From Deltaproteobacteria bacterium (GTDB lineage: Bacteria; Desulfobacterota; Binatia; UBA9968; JAJDTQ01), in assembly GCA_028818755.1 (NCBI GenBank), contig JAPPNF010000051.1, forward strand, positions 104 to 64,103: a DNA stretch of 64,000 bases, read 5' to 3'. The notes below the pieces were generated by a model. It saw only the letters and a program-made list of their open reading frames with translations, was not told the origin of the DNA and ran no database searches. Shown piece after piece: positions 29,014-35,118 of this stretch; position 1 is the first letter of the stretch; each line of letters starts with the position of its first letter. The position numbers and the translations under genes are program-made.

Positions 29014-29082
29014 CAACCCGCAATCTGCGGTTGCTGACTGAAAAAATGCAGCCTTTTTTCAGTTTTCAACCGCAAATTGCGG
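29014..29082. other. Three consecutive hairpins in the pmbA-ATPase intergenic region
   Basis: CAACCCGCAATCTGCGGTTG (29014-29033), CTGAAAAAA-tgcagcc-TTTTTTCAG (29038-29062) and CAACCGCAAATTGCGG (29067-29082). The outer two share the CAACC(C)GCA..TGCGG motif. Confidence 0.6.
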
Positions 29083-29172
29083 CCATTTTGTCCCACAGCA
29101 GGTCGGTTATGTCTATTTAATGATCCGATCATTGAATTGACACACTTTGGGAGTCTTGGCAAAATAGGTAGC

Positions 29173-30378
29173 ATGTTACGCCGCCATTTGACTGAAGCGC
29201 TCCGGGCTGCCGCTGCGTCCTATCCGGTGGTGACGCTCACGGGGCCGCGGCAATCCGGGAAGACGACGCTGGTTCAGGCGTTGTTCGCGGATCATCGCTA
29301 CCTGTCGCTCGAAGCGCCGGATGTGCGGGCGAGAGCCATCGAAGATCCGCGCAGCTTGCTGGCTCAAGGCGACAGGCTGATCCTGGACGAGGTCCAACGC
29401 GCGCCCGAGTTGCTCTCATACATTCAGGGTCTGGTGGACGCCGACGCCCGGCCTGGTCGCTTCATCCTGACCGGTTCTCAGAACCTGCTGTTGATGGAAG
29501 CCGTGTCCCAGACCCTGGCGGGGCGCACCGCGTTTCTCCGTTTGCACCCGTTGTCGCTTGCGGAGTTGTCGGAGAGGGAACCCCTCGACCCGCTGAACCT
29601 TGATCGCATCGACGGCCCGCCGGTCGCAATCAGCGGTCCCCCGCCGGGCAGGAGCCTATGGGCCACGCTCGTCGACGGCTTCTATCCGCGAATTCACGAC
29701 CGTGGCATTCCTGCGAGCGAGTGGCTGGCCGACTATTCTCGTGCCTACGTTGAACGGGATGTCCGCGAGGTCATGCAGATCTCGGATGCAAGGGGCTTCG
29801 AGCGTTTCGTGCGGCTGGCGGCCGCGCATACGGCAACGGAGCTCAACCTCGCATCGCTGGCCAGCGATGTCGGCATCACGCAGCAGACCGCCAAGCGTTG
29901 GCTCGCGGCCCTGGAGATCGGATTTCTGGCCACCACGCTCCCGCCCCACCACGCGAACTACCGCAAGCGCCTGCGCAAGCGTCCACGGCTGCACTTTCTC
30001 GACACGGGCCTTGTCTGCTATCTGCTCGACATCCGCGACGCCGCGACGCTGGAACGCCATCCGCTTCGTGGCGCCATATTCGAATCATTCGTAGTCTCGG
30101 AGCTGGTCAAGAGCTTTGCCGCGATCCGCCGCGACCCGCCGCTCTACTTCTGGCGGGATGCCACCGGGCACGAGATCGACATCCTGATCGACGCGGGCGG
30201 CCGTGTTGTCCCCGTGGAAGTCAAATCGGGCCAGACGGTTGCCGGCGACGCCGTCGATACCCTGTCTTGGTGGACGTCGATTCCCTCCAATCCGAACCAG
30301 GGAGGCGTCCTGGTCCACGGCGGAGAGGAGACCTTCGATTTCAAGGGGTTTCGGGTTCTGCCTTGGTTCCTGCGGTGA
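29173..30378 (+). CDS. AAA-type ATPase with C-terminal DUF4143 domain
   Basis: VVTLTGPRQSGKTTL (Walker A), LILDEVQRAPELL (Walker B), C-terminal ...YFWRDATGHEIDILID...VPVEVKSG. Confidence 0.75.
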   Translation: MLRRHLTEALRAAAASYPVVTLTGPRQSGKTTLVQALFADHRYLSLEAPDVRARAIEDPRSLLAQGDRLILDEVQRAPELLSYIQGLVDADARPGRFILTGSQNLLLMEAVSQTLAGRTAFLRLHPLSLAELSEREPLDPLNLDRIDGPPVAISGPPPGRSLWATLVDGFYPRIHDRGIPASEWLADYSRAYVERDVREVMQISDARGFERFVRLAAAHTATELNLASLASDVGITQQTAKRWLAALEIGFLATTLPPHHANYRKRLRKRPRLHFLDTGLVCYLLDIRDAATLERHPLRGAIFESFVVSELVKSFAAIRRDPPLYFWRDATGHEIDILIDAGGRVVPVEVKSGQTVAGDAVDTLSWWTSIPSNPNQGGVLVHGGEETFDFKGFRVLPWFLR

Positions 30379-31221: not shown

Positions 31222-31809
31222 GTGGCGGCGATAACGCAGGCGCGCGATGCAATGTCGATCAATTTGGACGACCTCAAGAAAGGCAGTATGCCTGGCGTGG
31301 AGGCGGACGTCGGCGCATCCTTGGCACAAGCGGCGATTATCTGTTTCGAGGATAGCAAGCATTCAAGCGGTGTAAAGCTACTGGTTGAAGGCACCTTCCA
31401 AAGGAAACCAGAGGTGCGTTGGGCACCGCTCGCAAATCCGGAACAGGCCCGACGCTCTTGGGACCCCGATGAAGCTACGGAAAAGGGCGCAACCGGAGTC
31501 GCTGTATTGCTGATCGACAAGTTCACCGAATACACGGTAGTAGAGCGAGCGATGAAGTGGATCGGAACTCGTCGTGGATCTGGTTTCGACTACTGGCTCG
31601 GCAAGAAGGAATCAAAGTCGTATGGTTCGCAGTTACTAGGCGAGGCTCGGCTTGAGGTATCTGGAATTCGAAATGGTAGTCACGCTGACGTCATGGCGAG
31701 AGTGCGCCAAAAGACAAGCCAGACGGAGGTGTCTGACTGGCTAAGAATCGAAGCCTATGTAGCCGTCGTTGAATTCAGCTCTCCACAATCGATGGTACTA
31801 CGGCGATGA
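31222..31809 (+). CDS. Hypothetical protein, possible PD-(D/E)xK-like nuclease fold (islet gene 1)
   Basis: ORF with GTG start at 31222 (alternative ATG at 31252). Ordered acidic motifs DEATEKGATGVAVLLI ... GSGFDYWLG ... ARLEVSGI resemble an E / D / ExK-like core, but the Lys position is Ser. No family recognised. Lower GC than its flanks. Confidence 0.45.
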   Translation: MAAITQARDAMSINLDDLKKGSMPGVEADVGASLAQAAIICFEDSKHSSGVKLLVEGTFQRKPEVRWAPLANPEQARRSWDPDEATEKGATGVAVLLIDKFTEYTVVERAMKWIGTRRGSGFDYWLGKKESKSYGSQLLGEARLEVSGIRNGSHADVMARVRQKTSQTEVSDWLRIEAYVAVVEFSSPQSMVLRR

Positions 31810-32927
31810 GCGACGTGAGGGATCAACACAGAGATGCGATGCGCTTCGCTGAGAGGGCAAAGACCGCGCGCATCAGTGGACTTGATGAAGAAGCCATCGA
31901 GTTGACCCGACGCGCTTTCGAATTGGAACGAGCGGCAGCGCAATCGCTCCTTGCAAGTTTTGACGCGGAGCCTACGCGTTCGGTCTTGTTTCGCAGTGCT
32001 GCAACACTAGCATTGGAGTGTGGAGAGCTGGAAGAGGCTAGGCGACTGGCTTTTCAAGGGCTTGCGGGATTTCCCCCAAAAGAGATTGCCGATGAGATCC
32101 ACGAAATCGTGGAGGAGGGCGAATTTCAGAAGCACTTGGCAACGAGAGGAGTCAAACTTCAACCCGACGAATTTCAAATGTCCTTAGTAGGACCCGGGGT
32201 TTCGACAGGTATTGCTCCAAGTACAGCAGTGTTGTCCCGCGTGGAAAGCTTGAAGAACTTGGTTTTCCGCACGGGCGAGCGTATCGCAGGGATGGAATAT
32301 CGTTCTCGGGGTCGACGTCGGCAGACCATTGAGCGAGACTATGAGGTTTTCTTGAGTGCCCCCCGGGCCGGTAGCTTCACACTTTCGGTCCACATAGGAC
32401 AGCCGGAACAACTGAGCATCCCAGGTCTGGCCAAGGCCGAGCTTGTAGTCCACGAGCTGTTCGATTGCTTTGATCTGTTGGAGTCAAAGCCCGAAGAGGG
32501 TCTCCGCGAACGCATCGGAAACGAGGCTTACTACGCGAATTTTGTTTCGCTTGCTCGCAGAATAGGCCCCGATGGTGACTCGGTTCGTTGGGTTGGCCTA
32601 AGTTCCGCCCGGGGAGCAGAGAGTCGCCACGTCGAGCTCAAGACAACGCCGGAGTCCTCTACGGTTTCCGATGTCACCACGGGCAGAGTCGAGGAGGCGA
32701 CCGAGGAAACGAAAGTCCAGGGTGTTTTGCGTTGGGCTGATGCCACGAAGGACGCCGAGACGGTCCTTATTATTGATGCTGAGGGACGAAGTCACAGGGT
32801 TCGAATACCACCTGGTGTGGACGACATAGTGAAGCCGCACTGGCTTGATGAGGTAGTTGTGACCGGGTCTCGTGATCGACGCGGAACAATATTGCTTAAG
32901 AACATCGACCCTGTGCCATCTCGATAA
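31806..32927 (+). CDS. Hypothetical 373-aa protein (islet gene 2), helical N-terminus
   Basis: The start ATG overlaps the stop of the upstream gene (ATGA at 31806-31809). N-terminal ~100 aa are helical/TPR-like (RFAERAKTARISGLDEEAIELTRRAFELERAAA...). The rest has no recognisable motif. Confidence 0.5.
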   Translation: MSDVRDQHRDAMRFAERAKTARISGLDEEAIELTRRAFELERAAAQSLLASFDAEPTRSVLFRSAATLALECGELEEARRLAFQGLAGFPPKEIADEIHEIVEEGEFQKHLATRGVKLQPDEFQMSLVGPGVSTGIAPSTAVLSRVESLKNLVFRTGERIAGMEYRSRGRRRQTIERDYEVFLSAPRAGSFTLSVHIGQPEQLSIPGLAKAELVVHELFDCFDLLESKPEEGLRERIGNEAYYANFVSLARRIGPDGDSVRWVGLSSARGAESRHVELKTTPESSTVSDVTTGRVEEATEETKVQGVLRWADATKDAETVLIIDAEGRSHRVRIPPGVDDIVKPHWLDEVVVTGSRDRRGTILLKNIDPVPSR

Positions 32928-32940
32928 GACAACAACTCGC

Positions 32941-33150
32941 CTAAAGGATCTTGTACCCTTTGCCCAGCACCACCCGCATCAGCCCGTCGATGTGGGTCAC
33001 CGCCGGATCGAACTCGATGACGGCGACCTTCCGTTCCAGCGAGAAGTCCACCTCGGTGACGCCCGGCGAATTCTCGAAGGCTTCGGTCAGCTCGGCGACG
33101 GCGGTGTCCGTCAGGTCTTCGATGGAGATGATGGCCGTCTTGGTGTTCAT
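32941..33150 (-). CDS. Small HMA/ferredoxin-fold-like protein lacking the CxxC metal site (69 aa)
   Basis: MNTKTAIISIEDLTDTAVAELTEAFENSPGVTEVDFSLERKVAVIEFDPAVTHIDGLMRVV has the heavy-metal-associated domain layout without cysteines. The start overlaps the hemerythrin stop. Confidence 0.5.
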   Translation of the reverse strand: MNTKTAIISIEDLTDTAVAELTEAFENSPGVTEVDFSLERKVAVIEFDPAVTHIDGLMRVVLGKGYKIL

Positions 33151-33635
33151 GGCGTGACGGCTCCGCCGGCGGCCCTGCCCGGGTCCAGCAGCCGCTTGAT
33201 CTCCCGGCCGGCACGCTCGGCCTCCGCATCCGGCACAAGGGCCTCGAAGGCCGGAAAGAGCTGCCTCTCCTCGCTCCGGATGTGCTGCTCCAGCAGGTCG
33301 CCGAAGTCGAACAGGAACTTCCGCGGCCCTCCGGGTCCGCCGGCGTCCGCCACCAGCCTGGCGAACGTCCGGTGCTCGCCTTCCAGCCGGGCCACCAGTT
33401 CGCGGCATTCCTCGTGGGCCGCCATGAGCGGGAAGAGCACCGTTTCTTCGGCCTCGAAATGGGCGGTCAGGTTCTCGTTGAAAAAACGCGATGCCTCCGC
33501 CGCGCACGCCTCCATGGCCGTTGGGTCGCCGGGATTGATCTGTCCGAGGGCATGCTTGCGGCAGCGTAGGGCCAGCGCCAGTCCGTGGTGGTGGTCGTGT
33601 GACAGGGGTATCAGGGAGGGGTGTCGCTTGGCCAT
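33147..33635 (-). CDS. Hemerythrin (HHE cation-binding) domain protein
   Basis: MAKRHPSLIPLSHDHHHGLAL...HFEAEETVLFPL...EHR...LLEQHIRSEERQLFP. Only the last 162 codons of the 587-aa track ORF are taken. Confidence 0.7.
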   Translation of the reverse strand: MAKRHPSLIPLSHDHHHGLALALRCRKHALGQINPGDPTAMEACAAEASRFFNENLTAHFEAEETVLFPLMAAHEECRELVARLEGEHRTFARLVADAGGPGGPRKFLFDFGDLLEQHIRSEERQLFPAFEALVPDAEAERAGREIKRLLDPGRAAGGAVTP

Positions 33636-33710
33636 TGAATTCCAGGGGAAATTGACGGTGCCCGGTCGATGGGCTACCCTTCGCGTCAGTGTTATCCAGG
33701 AGGTTGATAT

Positions 33711-34196
33711 ATGGCGGACGACATGATCGTCAAACGCGAAGTTGTGATGGAGGCCGACGCCGAGATGCTGGAGCGGCAGCAGAAGCGCGGCGAGGCGCGC
33801 GGCTTCACGGTTATGTGCGACGAGGGCGGGCGCATCGGCGGCGACAACACGGCGCCTCCGCCGATGGCCTATTTCGCGCTTTCCATCGGATTCTGACTGC
33901 TCACCCAGCTTTCCCGGTACGGGGAAATGATGAAGGTGAAGATCGACAAGGCGCGGGTGCACGTCACCGCGCGCTTCAGGAACGAGGGTTCGGTGCTGCG
34001 TGAGACGGTGCAGGCGCAGGGGGTCGGCGTCGAGACGAAGCTCGACGTGGAATCCGACGAACCTCCGGAACGCGTGGCCGCGGTGATCCGCAACTCGGAG
34101 CAGGGCTGCTACATCATGCAGACGGTCAGGAATCCGACGCCGGTGGAAACACGGGTGACGCTCAACGGAGCGGATTTCGACACCAGCAGGAAGTAG
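33711..34196 (+). CDS. OsmC/YhfA-family protein interrupted by an in-frame TGA at the conserved Cys position (candidate selenoprotein, otherwise a pseudogene)
   Basis: Track ORFs 33711-33896 and 33927-34196 are in the same frame. Read through, the product is ...GGDNTAPPPMAYFALSIGF-[TGA]-LLTQLSRYGEMMKVKIDKARV...NSEQGCYIMQTV..., a complete OsmC-type domain with TGA where family members carry the first redox Cys. Confidence 0.55.
33902..33938 (+). promoter_or_regulatory. SECIS-like stem-loop downstream of the in-frame TGA
   Basis: Upper stem TTTCCC (33910-33915) / GGGAAA (33922-33927) with apical loop GGTACG. Possible C33909-G33929 pair with bulged T33928. Lower stem CACC (33902-33905) / GGTG (33935-33938). 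The stem starts 13 nt after the TGA. Confidence 0.45.
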
Positions 34197-34248
34197 CTGA
34201 CGACAATCGGCCCAAGTGCAGGATCGATTCCGCGTACGGGAAGGCGCT

Positions 34249-35118
34249 ATGCAGGGTTCACAGGAAGGAATGGAAACGCTGGTCTTCGACGTCGACCAGA
34301 CCGAGTTCGAGGCGCAAGTGCTGGAGCGCTCTCGGGAGACGCCCGTGGCGGTGGACTTCTGGGCGCCGTGGTGCGGGCCGTGCCGTGTCCTGGGGCCGGT
34401 GCTCGAACGGCTCGCCGAGGAATACGGCGGCAAGTTCCTCTTGGCCAAGGTCAACGTGGACGAGAACCAGGAGCTGGCAGCCGGCTTCGGCATACAGGGA
34501 ATCCCGGCCGTCAAGGTGTTCAAGGACGGCGCGCTGGCCGCCGAGTTCACCGGCGCGTTGCCCGAACCCGGAGTGCGCGAGATCCTCGACCGCGTTGTCC
34601 CCTCGCGCGAAGATGAGCTCGCGCTGGAGGCCGGCCGGTTGTGGGCCGGGGGCGAGGCCGAAAAGGCGTTGGAGATCTTCGAGCAGGTCCTGGAGGAGTC
34701 GCCGCACCACGCGGGGGCGCTTTTGGGACTGGCCCGCGGGCTATTGGAGACCGATGCGGAGCGCGCCCTCGCGCTGCTGGAGAGGGTCCCCCCGGGAGGT
34801 CCGGAACGCAACGAGGCCGACCGGCTGATCGCCCGCCGGAACCTGAGCGCGGGTGACGGCGCGGACGTGGAGTCCCTGCGGCGGGAGCTGGATTCGGCCC
34901 CGGACCGCATCGACCTGCGTTTCCGCCTGGCTCAGGCGCTGGCCGCGGAAGAGCGCTACGAGGCCGCTCTCGAGGAGTTCCTGGCAGTGCTGAAACAGGA
35001 CCGCGCCTTCGAGGACGACGGCGCGCGCAAGGCCATGGTGCAGATCTTCGAGGTCCTGGGGCGCGGCGAGCTGGCCGACCGGTTCCGGTCGGAGATGGCC
35101 AAGGTGCTGTTCAGCTAG
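34249..35118 (+). CDS. Thioredoxin domain fused to a TPR-like C-terminus (YbbN/CnoX-like)
   Basis: [18 protein letters not shown]...[14 protein letters not shown] followed by helical repeats. ATG at 34249 is preceded by GGGAAGG. Confidence 0.75.

Follow-up and report, generated by a model that had tools for sequence, protein, structure and literature searches.

An OsmC-like gene of Candidatus Binatia with TGA at a redox cysteine position and a conserved SECIS hairpin is very probably a selenoprotein gene

Based on comparative sequence analysis and structure modelling, we conclude that positions 33711 to 34196 of the window (the whole stretch of 64,000 nucleotides of DNA that was analysed) very probably are one functional gene that encodes an OsmC-like selenoprotein (NCBIfam NF041052, COG1765-type, with the UxxT motif) in a Candidatus Binatia genome. 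As judged from the sequence comparisons, the gene is shown to be intact and under purifying selection, and to carry all the sequence requirements predicted for SelB-dependent insertion of selenocysteine (Sec) at codon 62; the actual incorporation of selenium at UGA-62 we infer. The original prediction had mentioned earlier reports of OsmC-like selenoproteins from metagenomes, and indeed the first report of the family, on the Sargasso Sea, dates from 2005 (Zhang, Fomenko & Gladyshev, PMC1088965), and NF041052 covers it. The gene, here called OsmC-Sec, is an added member of this known family and hence the rediscovery that had been expected. The features of the locus are as follows.

33698 to 33703, plus strand: Shine-Dalgarno sequence AGGAGG, 7 nt before the ATG at 33711, read from the sequence
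33711 to 34196, plus strand: coding sequence of the predicted OsmC-like selenoprotein (Pfam PF02566, NCBIfam NF041052, AlphaFold model)
33894 to 33896, plus strand: TGA, predicted selenocysteine codon U62, first residue of UxxT (aligned to Cys; 65 of 65 orthologous sequences)
33910 to 33927, plus strand: core hairpin of the bacterial SECIS (bSECIS criteria, synonymous entropy, RNAalifold covariation)
34107 to 34109, plus strand: TGC, C133, second conserved OsmC Cys, presumed resolving (alignments, 3cje/2onf, model)
34249 to 35118, plus strand: thioredoxin (WCGPC) fused to TPR_19/TPR_20, candidate reductant (Pfam and NCBIfam matches)
33147 to 33635, minus strand: hemerythrin-like protein (HHE / di-iron), 162 aa, divergent (translation; weak NCBIfam matches)
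32941 to 33150, minus strand: small HMA-like (heavy-metal-associated) protein, about 69 aa (Pfam HMA, E=7e-4, below the gathering score)

Read directly from the sequence, the frame at 33711-34196 on the plus strand runs from the ATG at 33711 over 161 codons to the TAG at 34194-34196, and its sole interruption is the TGA at 33894-33896 (codon 62). The two open reading frames 33711-33896 and 33927-34196 are thus one frame, as had been proposed. The start of the gene is fixed at ATG 33711 by an in-frame stop two codons ahead of it (33705-33707), and the upstream arrangement GG-TGA-TAT-ATG is kept in most orthologues of the same genus. With TGA read as U, the translated product contains ...MAYFALSIGF-U-LLTQLSRYGEMMK... 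and, in the region of the second Cys, ...NSEQGCYIMQTV..., in which C133 (EQGCYIMQTV, codon TGC at 34107-34109) was found intact, again as proposed.

The read-through product was matched by the Pfam OsmC profile PF02566 (E=5.8e-16; residues 44-147 against profile positions 1-99 of 100) in one stretch across the TGA, and by the NCBIfam model NF041052, "OsmC-related (seleno)protein", with 186.2 bits over profile positions 2-144 of 144, the curated cut-off being 95 bits. Both profiles span the TGA end to end, which bears out the claim that the two reading frames together make a complete OsmC/YhfA-like domain. The AlphaFold model (pLDDT 79, pTM 0.72, from an alignment of 18 sequences) shows the read-through product with a predicted OsmC fold, and its best PDB fold matches in Foldseek were OsmC/Ohr-family or OsmC-like entries with probability 1.00. 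In the model, U62 lies within the long helix 51-73, and C133 lies at the break or kink between helices 119-132 and 134-139. In OsmC/Ohr proteins, one redox cysteine is found on helix alpha-1 and the other on the kinked helix alpha-2 (PMC8945050), so the predicted placement of U62 and C133 is the same arrangement.

An alignment with Cys-containing homologues had been called for, and it showed the expected correspondence between U and C in full-length homologues as well as in proteins of known structure. The U62 column holds Cys in the full-length database homologues P0005, P0025 and P0040 and in a Cys paralogue of a relative (genome G038, locus L079; IGFCMLTQ). U62 and C133 aligned with the two conserved Cys of PDB entries 3cje (E=8e-11) and 2onf, in that order, which places the TGA at the first conserved Cys of the family. 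C133 was invariant in alignments A1 and A3. U62, R9, D37, E38, R69 and R127 were invariant too. The sequence U-L-L-T corresponds to the published UxxT motif, which is listed for the OsmC-like selenoprotein family (COG1765) in Tables 1-3 of Zhang, Fomenko & Gladyshev 2005 (PMC1088965) and was repeated in reviews of 2022 and 2026.

The machinery for Sec insertion was searched for in the assembly (4.94 Mb, 96% complete), and tRNA-Sec, selA, selB and selD were all found. The tRNA-Sec scored 73 bits, above the Rfam cut-off, and was called as SeC with anticodon tca by ARAGORN; selA, selB and selD are adjacent on contig C9 and all score above the curated family cut-offs. TGA is the commonest stop in this genome and ends 1044 of the 1834 open reading frames of at least 500 codons. 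Genome-wide reassignment of TGA was ruled out on this count, and because TGA is an ordinary stop elsewhere, the recoding at codon 62 is local.

The same genome holds two further genes with an in-frame TGA. The selD gene (C9:57403-58329, minus strand; locus L017, about 2385-2395) is itself Sec-encoded, with the TGA in M..EVKAAG-TGA-AAKLG and U at the catalytic Cys position. A second paralogue of the OsmC_like_Se type, 29% identical to the OsmC-Sec protein, is found on contig C124 (704-1147, minus strand; locus L078). It scored 131.6 bits against NF041052, carries its TGA in IGF-U-MLSQ followed by the hairpin TGACGC/AGTTG/GCGTCA, and is present in most genomes of the same genus.

A stem-loop of TTTCCC (33910-33915), loop GGTACG and GGGAAA (33922-33927) had been proposed to begin 13 nt 3' of the TGA, and it was located in the sequence exactly there. 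This 6-bp register (33910-15 with 33922-27) and the conserved consensus, in which 33911-33915 pairs with 33921-33925 around the apical loop GGUAC (33916-33920), are equally possible in the window sequence. The published bSECIS model allows an apical loop of 3-9 nt, an upper stem of 4-16 bp, a G in loop position 1 or 2 that is usually followed by G or U, a distance of 16-37 nt from UGA to loop, and a minimum free energy of at most -7.5 kcal/mol (PMC13188914, Fig. 2). The hairpin has a loop of 5-6 nt (GGUAC(G)) that opens G-G-U, a stem of 5-6 bp, a UGA-to-loop distance of 19 nt (33897-33915) and an energy of -8.1 kcal/mol for the 21-nt core or -15 for the 57-60-nt stretch from the UGA. Its geometry hence lies within the published limits on all four counts, as the original prediction had supposed, and the second loop G and the U were invariant in 52 of 52 distinct sequences.

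The folding energy did not differ significantly from that of shuffled sequences (z = -1.0) and was discarded as an argument. Moreover, a hairpin of bSECIS geometry with at least 6 bp follows 3.7-3.9% of the TGA triplets of both the window and the genome. For these two reasons the hairpin taken alone is no more than suggestive. However, the conservation of the TGA, the near absence of synonymous variation and the compensatory changes of paired bases together place it far above chance. Nearly all orthologues encode the Ser-Arg-Tyr-Gly-Glu of the hairpin as TCC-CGG-TAC-GGG-GAA. Across the 65 distinct sequences of a codon alignment, these five SRYGE codons had an entropy of 0-0.22 bits, compared to 0.34-2.09 bits for those conserved degenerate codons that were scored in the rest of the gene, and the hairpin has GGG, CGG and GAA fixed whereas GGC, CGC and GAG are preferred elsewhere in the gene. 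Compensated stems were seen as ATC...GAG for ATT...GAA in two species, TTGCCC...GGGCA in six species, GTCGC...GCGAC in two species, and TGACGC...GCGTCA in the paralogue with 29% identity. For 52 distinct sequences RNAalifold gave a 5-bp stem closing GGUAC with compensatory double changes at three of the five pairs, the other two pairs being kept in 52/52 and 51/52 sequences. When pairs were counted in the fixed register of the 6/7-bp hairpin, one pair had double changes; the conserved register found by RNAalifold is shifted by one. The hairpin is thus shown to be a conserved SECIS under selection at the nucleotide level.

Not every part of the proposed structure stood up equally well. The lower stem CACC (33902-05) with GGTG (33935-38) is present in the window sequence, but as a conserved part of the element it was rejected, being paired in only 54% of alignment cells and present only where the peptide reads K-V and not K-T. 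The possible bulged U found no support. In a permissive Rfam scan of 33700-34200 no SECIS family was matched, the only match being a chance one to RAGATH-31 (E=3.2); Rfam has no model for this element.

The SECIS of E. coli fdhF likewise lies inside the coding region just 3' of its UGA, and the two hairpins share no sequence similarity. In fdhF the loop bases are G23 and U24 counted from UGA. In the present hairpin the G-U of the apical loop falls at about nt 24-25 from the U of UGA, which fits the general bSECIS consensus. In comparison to fdhF, the conserved stem is shorter (5-6 bp), with neither a supported bulged U nor a conserved lower stem and with no Rfam match.

Stem-loops 3' of stop codons can also stimulate read-through in general, and the UGA could in principle be read without selenium, with Trp, Cys or Gly placed at position 62 by near-cognate suppression or local recoding and the hairpin as a mere stimulator. 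We consider this highly improbable. One full-length record, P0002 (JGI metagenome, 166 aa, 70% identical), was deposited with W at the Sec column (LAF-W-LLTQI), and agrees with such a reading. The W is most simply explained as an artefact of the depositor's translation table, so that TGA was probably translated as Trp through the choice of code, and it is probably not a real Trp variant. Moreover, neither Trp nor Gly would be active at this site, which is that of the redox Cys, and the loop G-U together with the 19-nt spacing match the SelB-type SECIS model. The genome also keeps tRNA-Sec, selA and selB along with other Sec genes (selD and the second OsmC-like paralogue), which again argues for decoding as Sec.

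It had been expected that automatic annotation would split the gene, and the public gene calls are indeed proteins of 61 aa and 89 aa. Most database matches to the OsmC-Sec protein were fragments of 89-103 aa, and some records list the C-terminal fragment alone. Since the calls are exactly the two open reading frames, and since an ATG-ATG follows 30 nt past the TGA, two small genes might be proposed, of which the first would stop at the TGA and the second would re-initiate at ATG 33927. This is even less credible than read-through without selenium: neither half is a complete OsmC domain, the HMMs cross the junction without a gap, and each full-length Cys homologue is one polypeptide. In all orthologues the supposedly intergenic 30 nt encode the conserved LLTQ(L/I/V)SRYGE in frame, and no Shine-Dalgarno sequence precedes 33927 except for the hairpin's own GGGGAAA. 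A further open frame of 587 codons on the minus strand (33147-34910) covers the OsmC-Sec gene entirely and the thioredoxin-TPR gene in part. Apart from its last 162 codons, which appear to be a real gene (the hemerythrin-like one), this frame is a spurious antisense ORF typical of high-GC DNA.

The OsmC-Sec gene was followed through its order by searching 61 Candidatus Binatia MAGs, from 3 families and 14 genera, in six frames. An orthologue was present in 59 of the 61, and the full-length orthologues, which range in identity from 44% to 99%, all have TGA at the same codon, within the motif [GA]F-U-[LM]L-T-[QH] in all those found. In the codon alignment of 65 distinct orthologous sequences the TGA column was occupied by TGA in 65 of 65. 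Both flanks are conserved as protein but vary freely at third positions, a pattern that no pseudogene can give. Outside the order, NF041052 scored above its cut-off in one of 150 other genomes sampled from the phylum, again with TGA, and Sec-containing copies were also seen in contigs labelled Pyrinomonadaceae and Tectomicrobia.

Other stops or frameshifts in orthologues had been named in advance as a sign of a true pseudogene. Nearly all orthologues were found to have the single TGA, at the same codon. The exceptions are copies damaged besides the TGA in two relatives, one with an extra TAG (G037:C9:17148-17621) and one split into two overlapping pieces (G053:C179:5061-5511); these may be duplicates that have truly become pseudogenes, or errors of the assembly. 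There is practically no chance that the gene is a pseudogene with a nonsense mutation and a coincidental hairpin: an in-frame stop does divide the domain, the hairpin energy alone is not significant and two relatives carry these damaged copies, but all 65 distinct sequences from 14 genera share the same TGA codon exactly at the catalytic Cys position, the flanks are conserved at the amino-acid level and nearly all copies lack other lesions, the genome has the full Sec machinery, and protein identities of 62-99% with abundant synonymous change contradict neutral evolution (dN/dS about 1).

For a functional selenoprotein, the following mechanism may be proposed. The mRNA hairpin 13-34 nt after UGA-62, with its loop GGUAC, would recruit SelB.GTP.Sec-tRNA(Sec), and UGA-62 would be read as selenocysteine and not as a stop, giving a protein of 161 residues and about 17.6 kDa. 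By analogy with OsmC/Ohr, U62 on helix alpha-1 would be the peroxidatic residue and would attack a hydroperoxide, probably an organic one. The selenenic acid would then be resolved to a selenenyl-sulfide by C133, which lies on the kinked helix alpha-2, and a thiol reductant would reduce this U62-C133 bond; the best candidate for it in the genus may be the thioredoxin-TPR protein encoded directly downstream. Some thiol/selenol redox role of the OsmC-Sec protein is very likely. A peroxidase activity is somewhat favoured, and it is an analogy: for the YhfA/COG1765 branch of the superfamily no enzymology is established, and the Arg and Glu that serve catalysis in Ohr/OsmC are reported to be missing from YhfA proteins of the E. 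coli type (PMC8945050).

The thioredoxin-TPR gene lies directly downstream of the OsmC-Sec gene, and the hemerythrin-like gene adjoins it, in 23 of 23 loci of the same genus, in which the position of the HMA-like gene is also conserved. The hemerythrin-like protein gave weak matches to the NCBIfam di-iron RIC/YtfE models, all below the cut-off. Its stop codon (33147-33149) and the ATG of the HMA-like gene (33148-33150) overlap by 2 nt, which suggests a possible translational coupling of the di-iron and metal-binding-domain proteins. The thioredoxin-TPR/hemerythrin/HMA context was found in the same genus only and is absent from more distant loci, so that synteny gives weak support as functional evidence. 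One distant orthologue has an AI-2E transporter downstream in place of the thioredoxin-TPR gene, and given this different context the thioredoxin-TPR protein is a candidate reductant that should be taken as a lead and not as a conclusion. We regard it as doubtful, though possible, that the Sec-containing OsmC protein and the downstream thioredoxin-TPR protein are a dedicated two-component selenoperoxidase in which the latter does the recycling, and which would belong with hemerythrin and HMA to an island for O2, peroxide and metal stress.

Further upstream, two adjacent open reading frames of 195 aa and 373 aa (31222-32927, plus strand) have an amino-acid composition that is visibly less GC-biased than their surroundings, and adjoin a 433-aa open reading frame at 29077-30378. 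This region is possibly an inserted or defence-type island.

Compared to the OsmC-like selenoproteins described before (PMC1088965/NF041052), the present protein has the same PF02566 domain, the same UxxT motif and Sec in place of the first conserved Cys, and its gene has a bacterial SECIS with a G in the apical loop directly downstream; matched along the whole of NF041052, it reaches twice the cut-off. Marine surface metagenomes were the source of the first members, whereas the present one comes from a soil-, sediment- and sponge-associated Candidatus Binatia lineage, in which it is near-universal within the order (59/61), duplicated (contig C124) and, in the genus, linked to thioredoxin-TPR. 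Unlike the 2005 family, it has been called as fragments in public MAG records.

With OsmC and Ohr proteins (E. coli OsmC 1qwi/1nye, P. aeruginosa Ohr 1n2f, Xylella Ohr 1zb9) the modelled protein shares the fold (Foldseek probability 1.00) and the two conserved redox residues on helix alpha-1 and the kinked alpha-2. The chemistry is likely the same by analogy, with a peroxidatic residue and a resolving Cys. However, the identity is only 10-19%, and the peroxidatic residue would be Sec here and is Cys there. Lipoyl proteins or AhpD recycle Ohr/OsmC proteins (PMC8945050); the sole candidate here is the thioredoxin-TPR neighbour. The closest solved structure, and the best match in both sequence and fold, is Jann_2040 of Jannaschia sp. 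CCS1 (PDB 3cje), a Cys form from structural genomics without an assigned activity. It is about 19-25% identical to the OsmC-Sec protein, and its motifs CVMTQ and GCFLEQT are similar to ULLTQ and GCYIMQT.

The family, the UxxT motif and the decoding mechanism were already established, and the current understanding of them is unchanged. Essentially all public records of the lineage consist of fragments of 61 aa and 89-103 aa, once with W at the Sec position, and as a result of these fragmentary gene calls the active-site half of a near-universal redox protein of Binatia is missing from the protein databases. The locus also provides an unusually clean example of a bacterial SECIS, with synonymous variation suppressed over exactly five codons. 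If the selenoperoxidase pair were true, it would give the YhfA/COG1765 branch its first defined activity and reductant. Together with the second paralogue and the Sec-containing SelD, the OsmC-Sec gene makes up a multi-member selenoproteome in these uncultivated bacteria.
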